Origin: a virus
Lineage: Duplodnaviria > Caudoviricetes
Reading direction: 5' to 3' (one strand)
Virus record (IMG/VR): IMGVR_UViG_3300046777_001724
Span: 1-60,892 of that record
Length of the DNA: 60,892 bases
Below are positions 31,240 to 59,669 of the stretch, in pieces (the first letter of the stretch is position 1; every line of letters starts with the position of its first letter). The notes beneath the pieces were generated by a model. It did no database searches. It had not been told where the DNA came from and saw nothing but the letters and a program-made list of their open reading frames with translations. A program made the translations under genes and the position numbers.

Positions 31240-31312
31240 GCCCTGGTAGCTCAGTGGATAGAGCAACGGACTTCTAATCCGCAGGTCGTAGGTTCAAGTC
31301 CTACTCAGGGCG
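31240..31312 (+). tRNA. tRNA-Arg(TCT)
   Basis: Canonical cloverleaf; anticodon loop CTTCTAA. Confidence 0.93.
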
Positions 31313-31367
31313 CAAATAAACAATCCTCACAATAACCCAAAAACATGACATTCAAGGAGACATCACC

Positions 31368-42862: not shown

Positions 42863-42948
42863 GCCCGAGTGGCGGAATGGCAGACGCAGGGGGCTTAAAC
42901 CCCCCGGAGGGCAACCTCTTACCGGTTCAAGTCCGGTCTCGGGTACCA
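42863..42948 (+). tRNA. tRNA-Leu(TAA), CCA encoded
   Basis: Type II cloverleaf; anticodon loop CTTAAAC. Confidence 0.93.
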
Positions 42949-43966: not shown

Positions 43967-44039
43967 TCCCAGATAGCTCAGTTGGCAGAGCTACGGACTG
44001 TTAATCCGTTGGTCGTAGGTTCGAGCCCTACTCTGGGAG
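43967..44039 (+). tRNA. tRNA-Asn(GTT)
   Basis: Canonical cloverleaf; anticodon loop CTGTTAA. Confidence 0.93.
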
Positions 44040-44041
44040 CT

Positions 44042-46147: not shown

Positions 46148-46220
46148 GCGCCTTTAGCTCAGTTGGTAGAGCAGTAGACTTTTAATCTATTGGTCCCGGG
46201 TTCGAGCCCCGGAGGGCGTA
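46148..46220 (+). tRNA. tRNA-Lys(TTT)
   Basis: Canonical cloverleaf; anticodon loop CTTTTAA. Confidence 0.93.
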
Positions 46221-46222
46221 CT

Positions 46223-47953: not shown

Positions 47954-48027
47954 GGGCCTATAGCTCAGCTGGTTAGAGCATCGGACTCATAATCCGCCGG
48001 TCGCAGGTTCAAGTCCTGCTGGGCCCA
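47954..48027 (+). tRNA. tRNA with CAT anticodon, probably Ile2 (lysidine)
   Basis: Canonical cloverleaf; G1:C72 paired, so not an initiator; C4:G69 and C5:G68 as in TilS substrates. Confidence 0.85.
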
Positions 48028-48029
48028 CT

Positions 48030-51278: not shown

Positions 51279-52049
51279 ATGACAACTCAGCCATACAGAA
51301 ATGATGATGATGATCTCTTTGATTATGATCCATCTAAAGAACAAACTTCAAACTATAGTCAAGACTATTTAACTTCTTCTACACAAAATAATAACTCTAA
51401 AGATAATTCTCTTCTTGATGATATCTATCGTCAGATGGATAATCTAGTTCATTCTGATGGAGAGGAAGCTGTCAATGAATTCCGGATTCGTCTTTCTGAT
51501 TCATTAAATGAAGCTTACTCTCAGTACTTATCTAAGTCTTCTGTAGTCTCTCATGTTCAGGCTGTTACAATTACTTTAGATGAAGTCACTAATGGTAGAT
51601 TTTCTGAACTTTATCTTCTCAAAAATCTTGAACAAAATATTTTTCGTAGAATAAATATACACTTTTTATTGAACGCTATCATTGATGATGGTGGCGAAAA
51701 CAATATTAGTTTTAAAGATTTCTTGGCTAAAGTAAATATATCTATTTCTGATGATTTTATTCCTGTTTACTTTTTGACTTTACTAAATATTTCTAGTCAT
51801 ACATTAGATCTTGAAAGAGCTATGTATATGGATCTTTCTCAGAGACTAGGTATTACTCCTAATCCTTTAGCTATTCATTCTGATCCAACACCAAAAGAAA
51901 TTTCTAATGCAGTACCACTTACTGCTAGTCAGTTTAGAGATTCTATTTATAATTCTGTTTATGAAAAGATTTCTTCTACTCAGGAATACACTGATTCTAT
52001 AAAGAATATTTTTGTTGCAGACAGCGTTATAAAAATATCTAAGATATGA
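51279..52049 (+). CDS. Hypothetical protein
   Basis: ORF track. Confidence 0.75.
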   Translation: MTTQPYRNDDDDLFDYDPSKEQTSNYSQDYLTSSTQNNNSKDNSLLDDIYRQMDNLVHSDGEEAVNEFRIRLSDSLNEAYSQYLSKSSVVSHVQAVTITLDEVTNGRFSELYLLKNLEQNIFRRINIHFLLNAIIDDGGENNISFKDFLAKVNISISDDFIPVYFLTLLNISSHTLDLERAMYMDLSQRLGITPNPLAIHSDPTPKEISNAVPLTASQFRDSIYNSVYEKISSTQEYTDSIKNIFVADSVIKISKI

Positions 52050-52498
52050 AAAATAAACTTACAGAGTTTATAATTCTGTCTGGTACAGTTCTTGCATTAG
52101 CAGCTATAAACTATAGTATTATTCATACTCCTTTTATATTTATAGTTCTTTTGATTATGTTAGTACATGAGTTCGGTCACTATTTTGCTGCTAAGTTTCA
52201 AAATGGAGATCCTCAACTTCCATATTTCATACCTATTCCTTTTGTACCTATAGGTATTACAAGAGTTAGAAGAATGAAGTTTCTTTCTTTTAAATCAAAA
52301 AAAAATATAGTTCTATTTGGTCCCATTCTTGCATCTTTTACTTCTTTTATTCTTTATCTTTTTTCTTTATCTTTTTATCCACATTACTCTCTCTCTCTTT
52401 TACTTTTAACAATTGGCGAACTTCTTTTTAACTTTATTGGTTTTGACGGTAAAAAGTATAGACATTATTCTAAGCAGGAAAAAGTATCATGCATTTAA
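52046..52498 (+). CDS. M50 (site-2) family intramembrane metalloprotease
   Basis: HEFGH within a TM helix, FGP, N..GFDG. Confidence 0.75.
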   Translation: MKNKLTEFIILSGTVLALAAINYSIIHTPFIFIVLLIMLVHEFGHYFAAKFQNGDPQLPYFIPIPFVPIGITRVRRMKFLSFKSKKNIVLFGPILASFTSFILYLFSLSFYPHYSLSLLLLTIGELLFNFIGFDGKKYRHYSKQEKVSCI

Positions 52499-53262: not shown

Positions 53263-55227
53263 ATGTCTACCGATAAAGTAACTTATACTTTTGTTAAAGA
53301 GGAAGGCAATATTTTATTTCGGTCTAAAGTAAATTCATTTAACTTAGACCACGTAACAGATAAGAATATTGTATCTTTCTATCAGAACTTTTCAAACTAT
53401 GCTGCCATGGACACTGGTTTACTACCTGTCGATGGTACTGGTTTGTTGGCCATAAGATCAGCTGGCAATCACACTCAAGTAGCATATCAGTATAAGCCTG
53501 GTATGTACTACGTTAACTGGGGTGCTTCAGAAGGTGATCCTAACGCAGTAAGTTACTTGGTCGCTCAGCCATATAGAATTGTTATTATTGATTTTGTTGA
53601 TAATAATTTACTTGGTGCTAGAACATTTTATTCTCCTATTCCAGCTACTCATCCAGGTATTCAGCTTTACCATGTAAACCTCCCTAACATTAACTGTAGA
53701 GGTTATCGTGGAAATGGTGTTGGTTGGATTTGTTTGTATCATAATCAAGATTGGTCTAAGATGCCGTTTAATGAACGGTTGGCTAGAGCTCTTGAACGTT
53801 GTTCTGGCATTGAAGTTTACAACGATGCAAACATGTCTGAAACAGATGGACCTCGTTTCTATGCTTCTAAGTCTAAGCCTTCTTATATTACTAATCCTCG
53901 TGAGTGGGAAGATAAATCTCAAGCCGAAGGATTTGAGTGGACCATTGATGAAAATCTTTGGATACCAATTATGGTCAAGAGTAGAGACGAACAAGGTCAG
54001 CACTACGATGGAGAAGGTTCAGTTCCACTGACACTTGGCGATGCTATTGTAGGTAAGTACAACGCATACTATAATGATTCATATCATCCAAAGCCTATTA
54101 ATGCACTGACTAATCCTGATCTTGAACTTGATCCTAAGACAGTTACTTCTTGGTTTGTTAAGTCTTATAATGATTCTTCTACATCATTTGTTGGTATTGA
54201 TCCATTTTTACAGTCTCAACAGACTAGACAAAATATAGCTAATACTCAGCTTACTCCTCAGAGTTTAAAAACTTCTTCTGATGTTCCTGATAGTGAAAAC
54301 ACTGTACAATGTACTTCTTGTGAAGATCTTTATGATGAAGATGATGTAGTGGAACATTCAGATGAATACTGGTGTACTGATTGTTTCAATGAAACATTTG
54401 TTCATTGTGAAAATACTGATGAGTACTTACATCAAAGTGATGATAACCTTTATTATAATGAGCACGATTCAGAATATTATGACCTCGGTGGCTTTAAGAA
54501 CTACAGCACCTGTTCAAACTGTAGTGCTTTACATTACGTAAGTCATACTGACTTTATTCTCTATCATTCAAAAACATCTCATTGGGATCCTAATATTTGG
54601 ATGGTTCAAGCTGAAGATGGTACTAAGATTGAACTCTGTTCAGAATGTATAGCTGATGAAGATATAGCAGGTGTTTCTACTATGAATTGTGAAACTTGTT
54701 CTTGTACCATTCCTCAGTCTTCTATTAATCATTCTTTCTCTATACCTACTTTGGCTGACGAATACAATATTATTGGTTCTAATAATATTTGTTCTACCTG
54801 TTCCTCTAAACAGTATTCTAAGAAGATGTCCATTACTGGTACAGCTTTTTATGAGTACGATATAGTTAAAGTTTTAAATCCTAAATCTTATATCGTAGAT
54901 GAATCTAATTTTTCTGCAGCTTATATTGCTATAACAGATTATATGAAATCTAACGATATGGATATACATGATCAGTATTATGTTCAAATTACTGATGCTC
55001 CATCAGTAGCATGTGATCTTGTACCCGCTTGGGAAATACAAGATCAGTATAATAATGATGATTCTTTTAATCCTCCTATTACACCAAATGGCGATGGCTA
55101 TTATAGATTAATCAAAACATCGGTGTCTTCTGCACTTGACGATAACCTTCAACATAATGGAGTGTTATTCGGTAAGCTTATAGAAAATCACGCTGTCACA
55201 CTTACACCATACAATGAACCATTCTAA
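53263..55227 (+). CDS. Prokaryotic E2-like (family D/PRTRC-B-like) protein with Cys-rich zinc-finger repeats
   Basis: QPY..LYHVNLPNINC..G..ICL resembles the LY..P.PN...G.IC E2-D signature; many CxxC pairs in the C-terminal half; operon context. Confidence 0.7.
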   Translation: MSTDKVTYTFVKEEGNILFRSKVNSFNLDHVTDKNIVSFYQNFSNYAAMDTGLLPVDGTGLLAIRSAGNHTQVAYQYKPGMYYVNWGASEGDPNAVSYLVAQPYRIVIIDFVDNNLLGARTFYSPIPATHPGIQLYHVNLPNINCRGYRGNGVGWICLYHNQDWSKMPFNERLARALERCSGIEVYNDANMSETDGPRFYASKSKPSYITNPREWEDKSQAEGFEWTIDENLWIPIMVKSRDEQGQHYDGEGSVPLTLGDAIVGKYNAYYNDSYHPKPINALTNPDLELDPKTVTSWFVKSYNDSSTSFVGIDPFLQSQQTRQNIANTQLTPQSLKTSSDVPDSENTVQCTSCEDLYDEDDVVEHSDEYWCTDCFNETFVHCENTDEYLHQSDDNLYYNEHDSEYYDLGGFKNYSTCSNCSALHYVSHTDFILYHSKTSHWDPNIWMVQAEDGTKIELCSECIADEDIAGVSTMNCETCSCTIPQSSINHSFSIPTLADEYNIIGSNNICSTCSSKQYSKKMSITGTAFYEYDIVKVLNPKSYIVDESNFSAAYIAITDYMKSNDMDIHDQYYVQITDAPSVACDLVPAWEIQDQYNNDDSFNPPITPNGDGYYRLIKTSVSSALDDNLQHNGVLFGKLIENHAVTLTPYNEPF

Positions 55228-55235
55228 GGAAACAT

Positions 55236-56936
55236 ATGTCACAAGATAATATAACATTGGACGACTTGAATTATTTTTGGATGCCTAACGGTGCTCCATG
55301 CTTTATTGCAGATAATGATTCTATATTTGAAATAGTTGAATCTATTGGTTTTGGTATTTATTATTTGTTTAGCAATGAACAAAAAATAACAACAAGCACT
55401 GCAACCAGCTACAAGCCTACTACTCCTGGGGCTGTAACATCCACACCTACCACTACTACAACTCAAACTATTAAGAATACTCCTAAATTGTTTAAAGTTG
55501 TTTCTAACTTTGTTGGTAGAAGTGTTACCATTTCTGAAGATCCGCTTCCTGATAATTTTGTTCCACTTGAAGAAAGCTGCGAATACGCACTTCCTTTTAT
55601 TCCATATTCTATGGTTGAAAAGCTTGATCAATTCTTTAGACTTGTTCACGCTAAGCATGGCACCGAGTCAATCGTATTACTTACTTTTGATCAGACCAAA
55701 GAAGGCTCTGATGGTTGGGGCATCTTAGTCCCAAGTCAAGTGAATACAGCTGCACATTGTCACTATGATGCCGAAAGCATTTTGGACATTAAACCAGAAG
55801 ATGCTATTATTGTTGGTTCTGTTCACAGCCATCCTGATATGCCAGCTTATGCTTCTGGTACTGACCATGCGGACCAGGCTGATTTTGATGGTATCCATAT
55901 TACTTTTGGATGGCAGAAATCAGTAAACAATGGAGCAACCCAGTATCATATGGAGCTTCAGATGTCTGGAAAGAATTATAAACTCGATCCAGAAGATGTT
56001 TTTGAAAGTTTTACTATTGACAAGGACCCTGATCCAGAAGTTGTACAATGGAGTGAACAAGTAAAAAAAGCATTCCCCCCAGTACAGGGGGGACATACGG
56101 CACATACTCCAGCTACCGATCAAACAGCGTATCAGATGACAAATGGTACGGCGGATACAACGCTTGGCTTTAGAAATTCTTTCTACAAAGAAAACATTAC
56201 TCTACTTCATGTAGAACCAGACGCTGTTGTCATAGCTGAAGTATATCAGCAAAGTGACGGCACTGCCGTATGTCCTTCTTGTAATTTCGATCTTGATTCT
56301 GCAGACTTCTATAGTGGATATTGTCAGATCTGTGATATACCTATTGCACTTGAATCTACGTCAATTAACATGATAGGTTCTGCTGTTCAGAAATATCGCA
56401 AAGTTCGCAATCTTCCAACAGACACAAATGTTTATCTTTGGGCTAGAGATAATCAGGGTGAAGAGTTCTTGATAAATATTAATATGGACAAAGCTTTATC
56501 TGGAACTTTTTATGAAGACGATGATTTTGATAAAGGTAAAATACCAGTAAATCACACTGGTTATGATGATACTTATCCTTTAGAAGATAATTATGATTTT
56601 GATCCTAATAGACTTGTATGCTGTGGTGAACTAGCTCAAGAATATGTTGATCGTTGTATGTGCCCTACAACAATATTCTACACAGACTTTAAAGCCTTTG
56701 ATGAAGAAACAACTAGAGTCAGTCTTTACGAAGCTGGATCTAAATGCCAAGAGTGCCTGCACTATTGGACACCTCAGTGTCCTGGATTAAAATCTATGAT
56801 AGGCGAGTATATTGATTCTGGCTATGATTCTAAGATTATTGAAACTATGGTTCAAATGTCCAGCTGTGATGAATACGTTCCGTATGAATCCATAAGTTCG
56901 GATTATTTGTATGAGAACGAAAGATATTATAACTAA
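55236..56936 (+). CDS. JAB/MPN metallo-isopeptidase with Cys-rich C-terminal extension
   Basis: TE..., VGSVHSHPDMPAYASGTD (HxH-x7-S-x2-D). Confidence 0.88.
   Translation: MSQDNITLDDLNYFWMPNGAPCFIADNDSIFEIVESIGFGIYYLFSNEQKITTSTATSYKPTTPGAVTSTPTTTTTQTIKNTPKLFKVVSNFVGRSVTISEDPLPDNFVPLEESCEYALPFIPYSMVEKLDQFFRLVHAKHGTESIVLLTFDQTKEGSDGWGILVPSQVNTAAHCHYDAESILDIKPEDAIIVGSVHSHPDMPAYASGTDHADQADFDGIHITFGWQKSVNNGATQYHMELQMSGKNYKLDPEDVFESFTIDKDPDPEVVQWSEQVKKAFPPVQGGHTAHTPATDQTAYQMTNGTADTTLGFRNSFYKENITLLHVEPDAVVIAEVYQQSDGTAVCPSCNFDLDSADFYSGYCQICDIPIALESTSINMIGSAVQKYRKVRNLPTDTNVYLWARDNQGEEFLININMDKALSGTFYEDDDFDKGKIPVNHTGYDDTYPLEDNYDFDPNRLVCCGELAQEYVDRCMCPTTIFYTDFKAFDEETTRVSLYEAGSKCQECLHYWTPQCPGLKSMIGEYIDSGYDSKIIETMVQMSSCDEYVPYESISSDYLYENERYYN
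56063..56093 (+). other. Candidate -1 programmed ribosomal frameshift signal
   Basis: In-frame A|AAA|AAA, then a 4 nt spacer and hairpin TCCCCCC-AGTACA-GGGGGGA. Confidence 0.55.
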
Positions 56937-57700
56937 TGACTACAGAGACTAAAAGATTTGTACTGGTTGGCGCTGGCGGAATTGGAAACTGGCTTGCAGC
57001 TGGTTTAGTTAGACTTCTTGAATGGAAGTTTCCTGGTTCTGGTTTAATTATTGTCGATGGCGATAATTATGAAGAAAAGAATCGGGAACGTCAAGAGTTT
57101 ACTAAGATTGGAAATAAAGCAGTAGTCAAGGCTCATGAACTGATTCCTCAGTTCCCCAACACTGTTATTATTCCACTCGCTAAGTGGGTTGTATCTGACG
57201 ATTTTTCTGGAGTTTCTTCTGATGAAGATGCTCCAAAAATTCCAGCATCTCAACTTATTAATGAAAACGATGTTGTCTTTGCAGTAGTTGATAACTTTGC
57301 TGCTCGTAAAATTATCTTTGATGCTGCATCTAAACTTAACAACGTTGATGTTTTTACCGGTGGTAATGATGATGAACTCTTCGGATCAATCTATCATTAT
57401 CAGCGTCGTGAAGGAAAGGATGTTACTGAACATCCAGTTCACTTCCACCCAGAGTATGATAATCCACCAGACAAAAATCCCGGTGAACTATCATGTCAAG
57501 AACGTTCTGAAATAGAAGGTGGCACTCAGCTACTAGCTACCAATATGGCTGTTGCAGCTTTTATTTTGGGACGTGTTCAGAAAACAATAGTGCTAGGTCA
57601 AAATCCCGACGAGACGGAGATATACTTTGACTTAGGTCTTGGCAAATCTGAACCGTATAACAGAACAGTATCTGAAAACAATCACTACACTACAGTATAA
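56936..57700 (+). CDS. E1/ThiF-family ubiquitin-like activating enzyme
   Basis: VGAGGIG, VDGD.YEEKNRERQ, NKA, VDNFAAR, LSC (candidate catalytic Cys), Q...TN. Confidence 0.9.
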   Translation: MTTETKRFVLVGAGGIGNWLAAGLVRLLEWKFPGSGLIIVDGDNYEEKNRERQEFTKIGNKAVVKAHELIPQFPNTVIIPLAKWVVSDDFSGVSSDEDAPKIPASQLINENDVVFAVVDNFAARKIIFDAASKLNNVDVFTGGNDDELFGSIYHYQRREGKDVTEHPVHFHPEYDNPPDKNPGELSCQERSEIEGGTQLLATNMAVAAFILGRVQKTIVLGQNPDETEIYFDLGLGKSEPYNRTVSENNHYTTV

Positions 57701-57708
57701 GGATAATC

Positions 57709-57960
57709 ATGGAAACTAATATGAATTCATCTTCATCTGCTCAATCGAGCGGTATGGCTAATGTTCGCTTTGGTGTTTATAACCAGCCAAGCAACATCGG
57801 AGGAAAGAGCATCAAAGACGCTCGTGAGCAGTTCAGCAAACTGTGGGGAATTCCTACAGACGCAGTTGCTTACAAGGGTAAAGAAAAGCTCGACGAGAAT
57901 TATGTTATTCAGCCAGGCGACAACGTGGAGTTCCACCGTCGTGCCGGCGAAAAGGGCTGA
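57709..57960 (+). CDS. Ubiquitin-like beta-grasp protein ending in RAGEKG
   Basis: 83 aa; DENYVIQPGDNVEF..GEKG; strong codon bias; AAGGA SD. Confidence 0.82.
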   Translation: METNMNSSSSAQSSGMANVRFGVYNQPSNIGGKSIKDAREQFSKLWGIPTDAVAYKGKEKLDENYVIQPGDNVEFHRRAGEKG

Positions 57961-57980: not shown

Positions 57981-58019
57981 GTGGGGGAGCATTACTCTAT
58001 ATAGGGTGTGCTCCCCCAC
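57981..58019 (+). other. Strong hairpin after the Ubl gene (mRNA stabiliser or attenuator)
   Basis: GTGGGGGAGCA...TGCTCCCCCAC; no U-tract follows. Confidence 0.6.
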
Positions 58020-58070
58020 ACTAACAAAAAAAAATTTACAAAGGCACCAGCCTATATACGGAGTATTATA

Positions 58071-59669
58071 ATGCTATTCAATTATTTAAAGTTGGGTTAT
58101 CCATCTTTATGGCTTAAGACCAAAGAACCTTATCGATCAGTAGAGTCTGTTCTTAATTATGATTTTAGAACATATTTTACAATTACTCCGGATACAGGTT
58201 TTTCACAGTATATTGATGGTACTTGGAAATCTGTTCTCGTAGATATTCCATTGCCAGAGGGTGGAACTAAATTATCAGTTATCTATGATGTTAGTGTTGC
58301 ATGGCACTGGTTGACAACAAATAAATTTGATAATCCAATTACTTTCATAGTTTCTATTTTGGGTAAGCCTGATCAGATTATTCCAGTCTATGCCCCCATT
58401 GCTTCTTCTCTAAACGCTAAGTACAGAGATGTATTTTGGTCTGATAATATAGATAGTTCTTTAATTCAACTTCTTTTTGTTTCTTCTTTTGATGCTCCAG
58501 AAGAATTTGCCGGCTTGTTTAAGCATGTTGAATTTTCTATACCTGATTCAAAAGAATTATCAACCATTGTTTCTCATATATCTGATTCTTCTGATGGAAG
58601 ATTTGTTCAGGAAGATGAAGTTAAAGATATAGTTCGTGCAGGCATTGGTCTTACTGAGTCTGACTTTATAGATCTTTGTCTTCAATCAATTGTTACTTCT
58701 AATAAAATAGATCATAAGTTTATTTATGATTCTAAGATGAAGCACATCAAGGATTCTGGTATCCTTGAAATTATTAAACCAAATATTACTTTTGATGATA
58801 TTGGTGGTTTGGATAATATCAAAGACCTAATCAAGCGCACTGCTTTTCTTTGGCAGAATAAAGAACAAGCAAAAGAATTTGGTATTACACCAATTCGTAG
58901 AGTTCTGATGGTTGGTATTCCTGGTACTGGCAAGTCAGCAATCTGTCAAGCTACTGCAGCTGAACTTGGTCTTGACCTTGCACGCACTGGTGTAAGTCAA
59001 GTTATGAATTCTTTTATTGGTCAATCAGAGCAGAACATGCGAGCTGTTTTTCAACAGATTAAAATGATGACTCCGCTTTGTGTTTGGATTGACGAATTTG
59101 GTAGAGACATGTCTGGTGGTCAATCTTCTGGACATGTTGATGGTGGCACTACTGATCGTGTCCATGGTGAGTTTCTTACTGGCCTACAAGAGCTTCCTGA
59201 GGACACCTTCCTTATGTGTGCTGCCAATCAGCTTGATCACCTAAAGCCAGAAATGCTACGTGCTGATCGCTTTGATAAGATTGTCTTTGTTGGTATGCCT
59301 TCTTTTGAAGAGCGTATGGATATCTTTAGAATTTACCTTGAGCCAATTAAAACAGATCATAAGTTTAATTACGAAGCACTAGCTCGTGCAACAGAATGTT
59401 TTACTGGTGCAGAAATTTCTTCTCTTATTAAAGAAGTAAAATTCTATGTTGTCAGCTCTGACTTTAGAGCTATAACAACTGAAGACCTTGTTTCTTATGC
59501 TCCAATGATGCGTAATACTATTTGGAACAAACACAGAGACATGGTAAAATCAATGTATCAGTTTGCATTGGAACAATGGGATTGGGCTTCTTCTTCTCAG
59601 CTTGAAGAAGCTAAATTAGTTATTACCGGAAAAGCTGCAGTATCAGAACAAGTTTCATTTAAAATATAG
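58071..59669 (+). CDS. AAA+ ATPase (Ycf46/Cdc48-like, degenerate first plus active second module)
   Basis: FDDIGGL, GIPGTGKS, FIGQSE, WIDE, LRADRFD, FTGAEI. Confidence 0.9.
   Translation: MLFNYLKLGYPSLWLKTKEPYRSVESVLNYDFRTYFTITPDTGFSQYIDGTWKSVLVDIPLPEGGTKLSVIYDVSVAWHWLTTNKFDNPITFIVSILGKPDQIIPVYAPIASSLNAKYRDVFWSDNIDSSLIQLLFVSSFDAPEEFAGLFKHVEFSIPDSKELSTIVSHISDSSDGRFVQEDEVKDIVRAGIGLTESDFIDLCLQSIVTSNKIDHKFIYDSKMKHIKDSGILEIIKPNITFDDIGGLDNIKDLIKRTAFLWQNKEQAKEFGITPIRRVLMVGIPGTGKSAICQATAAELGLDLARTGVSQVMNSFIGQSEQNMRAVFQQIKMMTPLCVWIDEFGRDMSGGQSSGHVDGGTTDRVHGEFLTGLQELPEDTFLMCAANQLDHLKPEMLRADRFDKIVFVGMPSFEERMDIFRIYLEPIKTDHKFNYEALARATECFTGAEISSLIKEVKFYVVSSDFRAITTEDLVSYAPMMRNTIWNKHRDMVKSMYQFALEQWDWASSSQLEEAKLVITGKAAVSEQVSFKI

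Follow-up and report, generated by a model that had tools for sequence, protein, structure and literature searches.

Does a viral gene for a JAB/JAMM peptidase give rise to one protein or to two? The question is raised by a stretch of phage DNA (Duplodnaviria, Caudoviricetes; positions 1 to 60,892 of IMG/VR record IMGVR_UViG_3300046777_001724), and this whole stretch of 60,892 nucleotides (nt) is referred to here as the window. The gene, an open reading frame (ORF) of 566 amino acids on the + strand (55236..56936), contains a run of seven A with a C/G hairpin just downstream. The original prediction, made from the letters of the window, proposed a programmed -1 frameshift at this point, resulting in a short and a long JAB isoform. 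That proposal is supported by the conservation of the cassette in related genes and by the coding pattern of the -1 frame. Judged from these sequences, the gene very probably yields two products, a 566-residue JAB protein with a Cys-rich domain and a 312-residue JAB protein with a conserved aromatic tail, and a programmed -1 ribosomal frameshift is probably how the second is made. That ribosomes are the slipping agent, the ratio of the two products and the role of each C-terminus are points that we infer. By itself the window is only suggestive; the relatives carry the weight.

The DNA at the site reads GTA AAA AAA GCA TTC CCC CCA GTA CAG GGG GGA. The slippery heptamer A_AAA_AAA (56063..56069, + strand) is made up of the last base of GTA (V276) and the AAA codons of K277 and K278, and stands in the X_XXY_YYZ register of the 0 frame. 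Downstream lies a predicted 3′ stimulatory hairpin (56074..56093, + strand), in which TCCCCCC (56074-56080) would pair with GGGGGGA (56087-56093) around the loop AGTACA. Inspection of the sequence confirmed both elements as originally described, the perfect hairpin beginning 4 nt after the heptamer when counted to the T-A pair and 5 nt after it when counted to the C/G core. The accompanying remark that the spacer is shorter than typical does not hold, since the conserved spacer measures 5 nt when counted to the C/G core, which falls in the usual bacterial range. The hairpin is part of the minimum-energy structure found by RNAfold (-16.2 kcal/mol, z = -2.55), and 3 of 200 shuffled sequences fold as well. 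The pattern CCCCCC-N3-16-GGGGGG occurs once in the window and in none of 100 shuffles. An A7 run is not unusual in itself, with 23 matches on both strands of the window against 33.5 expected. Five in-frame A_AAA_AAR heptamers are present in the window's called ORFs, and a hairpin follows only the one in the JAB gene. A search of Rfam around the site gave nothing near a gathering score and no match to a frameshift element. Elsewhere, a run of nine A (52297-52305) that includes an in-frame A_AAA_AAA is found in an ORF for a hydrophobic protein of 150 amino acids (52046-52498, + strand); no hairpin follows this run, after which the -1 frame continues for 44 codons without a stop.

From the heptamer the -1 frame of the window reads KKSIPPSTGGTYGTYSSYRSNSVSDDKWYGGYNAWL and reaches a TAG stop at 56171-56173, in agreement with the stop and with the 312 and 566 residues originally given for the two products. 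The trans-frame product would comprise 276 + 36 = 312 amino acids, where the 36 include K277-K278 and 34 codons are new. The -1 extension (56069..56173, + strand, stop codon included) encodes SIPPSTGGTYGTYSSYRSNSVSDDKWYGGYNAWL and would be the tail of the short isoform.

Metagenomes were found to hold 460 full-length homologs of the 566-residue protein (E <= 0.001); among the 120 of these 460 matches that were listed, lengths range from 535 to 620 amino acids and query coverage from 91 to 100%. The gene had no match in cultured-phage records. Fifty-two viral-contig loci were taken for comparison, of which 50 have the 566-residue type of architecture and two (L049 and L052) are more distant forms. 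The window and these 50 loci make up a set of 51 genes with 41 distinct sequences; a further gene, L104, on a contig of a metagenome-assembled genome (MAG), was counted separately. The contigs of the related loci are mostly 170-270 kb. Five related genomes that were queried are 97-100% complete and 202-216 kb in size, with terminal repeats in three. One record (IMGVR_UViG_3300042868_009074, 267,766 bp) holds two diverged JAB copies, L024 and L028, about 215 kb apart, each with its own frameshift cassette and with differing tails; either the assembly is chimeric or concatenated, or the genome has two operons.

NNA AAA AAA is found in the same register in 51/51 genes and in L104. After it all of them have, in this order, 4-6 nt of spacer, 4-7 C, a loop of 1-15 nt and 5-6 G, and RNAfold draws the hairpin in each of the 41 distinct genes (-12 to -21 kcal/mol). 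The check named in the original prediction, whether homologs keep the A-run and the hairpin, was therefore positive. In a codon alignment of the 41 distinct genes, both K277 and K278 are AAA in 41/41 sequences, and the other invariant lysines (K129, K186, K228) are AAA in 13-17 and AAG in 24-26. P281 is CCC in 41/41. Of the seven further invariant Pro columns, six have CCC in only 3-8/41, and P282 belongs to the C-run. Gene-wide, CCC makes up 12% of Pro codons and GGG 5% of Gly codons. Members of the NVSKK clade have exchanged the GTA (Val) that precedes the run for TCA (Ser), with the third-position A retained. Four-fold sites are near saturation, with a median pairwise identity of 0.46 compared to 0.38 expected from composition, and the sequences fall into 25 clusters at >=0.6. 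Because of this near-saturation, the Lys and Pro codon controls, the rarity of CCC and GGG and the wobble A kept across the Val-to-Ser change, the conservation of the signal is not attributable to protein conservation or codon bias. Moreover, each of the five complete relatives (202-216 kb) has a single occurrence of the pattern A7-N4-7-C5-N1-16-G5, located at the JAB gene, and the reversed pattern used as a control occurs in none of them. The five inner core C-G pairs of the hairpin form in 29-31 of 31 sequences.

In 51/51 genes the -1 frame continues for 29-49 codons (K277-K278 included) before a stop, the tail itself being 27-47 residues long, and the +1 frame at the same site runs for 6-63 codons. 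Of 16,253 other positions in these genes, only 1.6% have a -1 frame that stays open for at least 29 codons. A closer look at the overlap shows substitutions at 0-frame codon positions 1/2/3 of 39/89/71 out of 291 sites each (11 pairs of equal tail length). For four independent pairs the figures are 15/34/26 of 110, compared to 13/6/113 of 392 in the upstream JAB domain (contingency p = 2e-14). Variation in the overlap is highest at the wobble position of the -1 frame and lowest at the second position of that frame. A Tyr-x-x-Trp motif (TAC..TGG; 56156..56167, + strand) lies at the end of the -1 tail and is conserved: every one of the 34 distinct tails has its Trp 0-6 residues before the C-terminus, and in 28/34 a Tyr stands three residues before that Trp. 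In the 0 frame the T of TGG closes a codon that is always NNT, whether for Ala, Leu, Gly, Thr, Val, Ile or Pro, and the Tyr codons of the tail (TAC or TAT) correspond to Thr, Ile or Met in that frame. The tails are 20% Ser, 14% Gly, 13% Tyr and 6% Trp. The -1 frame behaves as a conserved coding-type frame, and the tail would most simply be a flexible tether that ends in a docking peptide.

Several results weigh against a frameshift. In E. coli constructs A_AAA_AAA shifts less than A_AAA_AAG, according to the available part of PMC5009743. Covariation of the hairpin across 31 sequences is not significant because the core pairs never vary, only inner extension pairs doing so (23-35: CG 4, UA 2, other 1). 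Dual coding could explain part of the invariance, as Pro-Pro/Gly-Gly in both frames needs C6/G6. A Shine-Dalgarno-like tetramer <=24 nt upstream is found in only 13/31 distinct sequences and at varying distance, so that this stimulator is not conserved. Taken alone, the overlap departs only modestly from an even spread of substitutions (p = 0.026, four independent pairs). Finally, the -1 frame stays open in 47% of codon-shuffled linkers. Its openness is thus partly a by-product of composition, because the Thr/Gln/Ala/Pro-rich linker has few codons that make -1 stops, and this control weakens the open -1 frame as stand-alone evidence.

The last of these results, along with the hairpin's non-significant covariation, would also suit a reading without any recoding, in which the A-, C- and G-runs are kept as a hairpin or Lys-Lys/Pro-Pro pause for folding, or as the site of a regulator. 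The site coincides with the point where the conserved JAB domain ends, and the -1 frame would be open merely since the linker is without Lys, Asn, Asp and Glu codons. However, a pause needs neither AAA over AAG nor a wobble A retained through the change from Val to Ser. It also leaves unexplained the substitution pattern of the -1 frame, the invariant NNT before the GG of the -1 Trp codon where the 0-frame residue varies among seven amino acids, the narrow length range of 29-49 codons and the stop 0-6 residues past Trp. We consider the absence of recoding to be quite unlikely.

The -1-frame evidence fits equally well with a slip made by RNA polymerase, since the protein product is identical. 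In such programmed transcriptional slippage an A would be added on A7/T7, and the resulting A8 mRNAs would be translated into the same 312 residues. The known cases of efficient transcriptional slippage in bacteria mostly involve runs of 8-11 bases, and seven A are short for bacterial RNA polymerases. Nor can the conserved hairpin, which lies 3′ of the run, act on a polymerase while it is slipping; the 5-nt spacing to that hairpin is a ribosomal arrangement, classical in bacteria where two tRNA-Lys can re-pair on the heptamer, and a sister clade lacks the hairpin and the A-run together. On the other side, all seven A are invariant and the last is never the G that makes E. coli ribosomes shift better. 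The available text of PMC4066793 and PMC5009743 also describes A7 runs as avoided in coding sequence, partly owing to slippage. The same text of PMC4066793 gives a cluster of A_AAA_AAA with a stem-loop as a proven bacterial shift signal in an insertion sequence (IS) cluster. On balance slippage by the polymerase appears unlikely, and ribosomal frameshifting is the reading that we retain.

A change in the DNA itself, rather than in its reading, is very improbable. Slipped-strand changes in A7, C6 or G6 would produce phase variation between long-only and short-only genomes, and among 87 shorter database proteins a few do look shifted at the C-run. These are the metagenome proteins P0122, P0123 and P0125 (284-324 amino acids), which are family-like up to VKK and then diverge as if the C-run had gained or lost a base; homopolymer assembly errors would explain them equally well. 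P0122 (324 amino acids) ends in ...NDWDAGWGI, reminiscent of the -1 tails. As a candidate for a natural in-frame short form it was rejected, its tail giving a non-significant hhalign probability of 2% against the tail profile. The 0 frame is intact across the A7, C6 and G6 tracts in 51/51 viral-contig genes and in L104. Contigs from runs X4 and X5 (one independent sample, study P4) span the site without an indel, and in run X3 contigs end and start within 56063-56079.

Natural controls for the cassette are provided by five genes of the sister type (L049, L053, L054, L056, L105), whose clade encodes JAB proteins of 410-430 amino acids. Their Lys-Lys codons are mixed (TCC AAG AAA, TCC AAA AAA, ACG AAA AAG, GTC AAA AAA AAG) and L105 is without Lys-Lys. 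None of the five has the C/G hairpin or Pro-Pro..Gly-Gly, the A-run cassette is absent, and the -1 frames of the four genes with Lys-Lys close after 6, 9, 34 and 23 codons. Pro-Pro..Gly-Gly is thus found only alongside the slippery run, which argues that it is the RNA, rather than the protein, that calls for these residues. In four of the sister-type genes a Gly/Ser/Tyr-rich segment is encoded in the 0 frame, that of L105 being only Gly/Thr/His-rich, and this in-frame stretch links to a zinc-ribbon-like domain. Lobe 2 of the Cys-rich region is in this clade a separate gene, placed between JAB and the gene for an E1-like enzyme (hhalign probability 96.6%, E = 5e-10). With lobe 2 and the Gly/Ser/Tyr segment placed otherwise, the sister clade therefore has the same parts in a different gene layout. 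Distant standalone JABs of 240-350 amino acids often have in-frame Gly/aromatic-rich tails directly after the W..KV.K block (L052, P0321, P0318, P0320, P0325 and P0327 with such tails; P0316, P0319, P0324 and P0328 without). Judged from these genes, a JAB with an aromatic/Gly-rich tail is also an ordinary gene product in relatives.

What would the two proteins consist of? The long isoform runs from an N-terminal domain through the JAB domain and a variable linker to a Cys-rich C-terminal region with two lobes. Residues 131-223 match Pfam Prok-JAB (PF14464) at 24.2 bits with a cut-off of 25, a weak but specific hit, and PF14464 is precomputed for many of the homologs. The zinc-binding motif of JAMM (MPN+) proteins is E ... 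H-x-H-x7-S-x-x-D; it is intact here as E144...H197-S-H199-x7-S207-x-x-D210 and invariant in 36/36 sequences of alignment A1. The A1 profile gave only weak rows against the PDB, including the Rpn11-like 6fjv over the motif (E = 0.08). The last conserved JAB block in this alignment is W272..V276 K277 K278..P281 P282. The 0-frame linker that comes next (56082..56171, + strand) is Thr/Gln/Ala/Pro-rich and poorly conserved in A1, and overlaps the -1 tail. The Cys-rich region (56172..56933, + strand) is specific to the long isoform, and its lobes carry invariant CxxC...CxxC and CC...CxC...CxxC...C...C patterns (alignment A3). AlphaFold2 gave a two-lobed model called confident (mean predicted local distance difference test score, pLDDT, 76). 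Searches with this region found nothing in the PDB with Foldseek at E <= 0.001 and nothing in Pfam at E <= 0.01; a wide VIA-align search reached a best Z of only 3.4 and an Atlas feature search a best score of 0.85.

Under ribosomal frameshifting, most ribosomes would read straight through and make the 566-residue protein. A fraction would pause at the C6/G6 hairpin with tRNA-Lys on AAA AAA in the P and A sites, slip back by one base on A_AAA_AAA, read 34 more codons in the -1 frame and stop at the TAG at 56171, releasing the 312-residue protein. This short product would have the same N-terminal and JAB domains, with a Gly/Ser/Tyr-rich tail ending in Tyr-x-x-Trp in place of the Cys-rich domain. 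The original prediction had described it as lacking the Cys-rich extension, which is correct as far as the loss goes and leaves out the gain of a conserved Gly/Ser/Tyr-rich tail of 27-47 residues. As that tail is conserved and aromatic, the short form is not simply 'untargeted', and the contrast originally drawn between an untargeted and a targeted deconjugase is unsupported as worded. The ratio of the isoforms may be fixed.

The window carries phage genes for a terminase, a UvsX-like recombinase, a helicase and a dCMP deaminase, the terminase being <=38% identical to those of Moorella MTATph1, large Bacillus phages (0305phi8-36 type) and Acinetobacter phages. Two MAG contigs with related genes did not establish a host. 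Upstream of JAB a protein of 654 amino acids is encoded (53263..55227, + strand), with a conserved N-terminal domain and a Cys-rich C-terminal half. It has an invariant LPNxNC..GWxCL motif in the upstream genes of L001-L056 and, at 50-70% identity over 300+ residues, surpasses the JAB C-terminus in conservation. Its model (pLDDT 82) had no Foldseek match; in VIA-align about 20 of 50 listed rows were E2/UBC enzymes, weakly so at a Z of just 3.1-3.8. The protein may be E2-like, and this model-based resemblance is put forward as a lead.

Downstream, a 254-residue E1-like adenylating enzyme of the ThiF family (56936..57700, + strand; Pfam ThiF 42.8 bits, cut-off 28.1) has a start codon that overlaps the JAB stop (TAATG). 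The E1 gene directly follows JAB in 31/37 distinct loci, starting between -11 and +20 nt from the stop. Shifted ribosomes would end 763 nt short of this start and so could not join any termination-reinitiation coupling there. Next is a putative ubiquitin-like protein of 83 amino acids (57709..57960, + strand) ending in ...EFHRRAGEKG. Its counterparts in related loci are 81-89 amino acids long and highly conserved, with a terminal Gly in 28/31. By sequence the small protein has no match in Pfam or the PDB, the latter giving weak rows only, and its fold is presumed to be ubiquitin-like. In L038, L042 and L051 the ...AGEKG end carries two further residues (SL or NI), an extension whose sequence suggests a precursor that needs trimming by a peptidase such as JAB. 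An AAA+ ATPase downstream of the operon (58071..59669, + strand; Pfam AAA 81.9 bits with AAA_lid_3; PADLOC IetA-like, 8e-30) is also conserved in related loci. Between the small gene and that of the ATPase, at about 57981-58034, a G/C-rich inverted repeat, perfect over 11 bp (GTGGGGGAGCA ... TGCTCCCCCAC), precedes a run of nine A and may form a regulatory or processing hairpin. No PADLOC model matched JAB, the possible E2 or the small protein, and E1 matched the CBASS E1-E2 models at only 1e-4. Given the place of the JAB gene in this conserved operon (possible E2, JAB, E1, Gly-ended protein, AAA+), the isoforms are probably differently docked forms of the phage's enzyme for processing or removing a ubiquitin-like tag.

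Five tRNA genes are present in the window (46148-46221, 31240-31313, 42863-42948, 43967-44040 and 47954-48028). The first (46148..46221, + strand) is a tRNA-Lys whose anticodon, UUU, decodes the slippery AAA codons. In 5/5 complete relatives (6/6 genomes with the window) this tRNA has a homolog, 84-91% identical and likewise with UUU, and one relative also has a tRNA-Val(UAC), the reader of GTA. A link between this tRNA-Lys(UUU) and the frameshift is a conjecture. It enters a broader proposal, which we advance as a long shot, that the frameshift serves to set stoichiometry and timing in a machine built by the phage and resembling the proteasome lid. The short JAB would dock via Tyr-x-x-Trp on the AAA+ ATPase or on E1, the zinc-binding lobes of the long form would reach another partner or substrate, the phage tRNA-Lys(UUU) would tune slippage, and the ratio of isoforms and the coupled translation of E1 would change over infection. 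For the docking of the short JAB this proposal invokes a resemblance to Rpn11 on the proteasomal ATPase ring and to bacterial JAB-E1 fusions.

Bacterial counterparts of such ubiquitin-like conjugation systems were recently found to function in defence against phages, and here the event would take place in a conjugation operon that is itself phage-encoded, in a gene of current interest. If the frameshift is real, it is a deeply conserved case of recoding beyond the classics of tail chaperones, dnaX and IS elements, in widespread uncultured freshwater phages of about 200 kb, and a 312-residue protein has been overlooked by automatic annotation in every such genome. Two selected C-terminal modules on one peptidase would offer a handle on what the system modifies. 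Moreover, as the cassette (A7, 5-nt spacer, C6/G6 hairpin) is present once per genome, it makes a simple natural test bed for shifting on A_AAA_AAA and for effects of phage tRNAs.

How does this locus compare with known systems? Full-text literature searches found no report of a frameshift in a JAB gene, and in the available part of the recoding review by Atkins et al. the terms JAB, MPN, deubiquitin and ubiquitin-like do not occur. The dnaX gene of E. coli (tau/gamma) is alike in its in-frame A-rich X_XXY_YYZ heptamer read by tRNA-Lys, in the 3′ hairpin a few nt downstream and in a frameshift product that is the shorter protein and has its N-terminal domains in common with the full-length one. 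However, its heptamer is A_AAA_AAG rather than A_AAA_AAA, the gene families are unrelated, and dnaX has an upstream Shine-Dalgarno-like stimulator which in the JAB genes is found in 13/31. In dnaX the -1 frame stops almost at once, whereas in the JAB genes it encodes another 27-47 residues (34 in the window), among them a conserved motif. The tail assembly chaperones G and GT of lambda-like phages, and of many further tailed phages, are made by a -1 frameshift that is found across diverged phages, with a common N-terminus and presumably in a set ratio. They differ from JAB in gene, slippery sequence and direction, GT being the longer product, and have no JAB, E1 or ubiquitin-like context. The nsp2 protease of arteriviruses is papain/OTU-like and not a JAMM enzyme. 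The -2/-1 frameshift in nsp2 likewise gives a deubiquitinase-type protease alternative C-termini on a shared N-terminus, yet in the available text of PMC10747760 and PMC7618843 this is an animal RNA virus with protein-dependent stimulation and no hairpin, so that the likeness is an analogy only. The transposase genes orfA-orfB of IS3/IS1 elements use A_AAA_AAG or A_AAA_AAA plus a stem-loop (PMC4066793, available part); there the frameshift results in a longer fusion, the transposase, whereas the JAB shift results in a shorter protein and JAB is not a mobile-element gene. The operon itself is closest in kind to the bacterial Bil, Bub and type II CBASS (Cap2/Cap3) systems, the shared feature being a JAB peptidase encoded beside a ThiF-type E1 and a small Gly-ended protein; BilABCD, as described in the available text of 10.1101/2023.09.04.556158, comprises a ubiquitin-like protein, an E2, a JAB deubiquitinase and an E1. 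Unlike these, the JAB operon described here is found in phage genomes of about 200 kb, and its JAB has extra N- and C-terminal domains and the frameshift. The mechanism is thus of a known kind; what is new is the gene family, the conserved alternative tail and the ubiquitin-like context in a phage.

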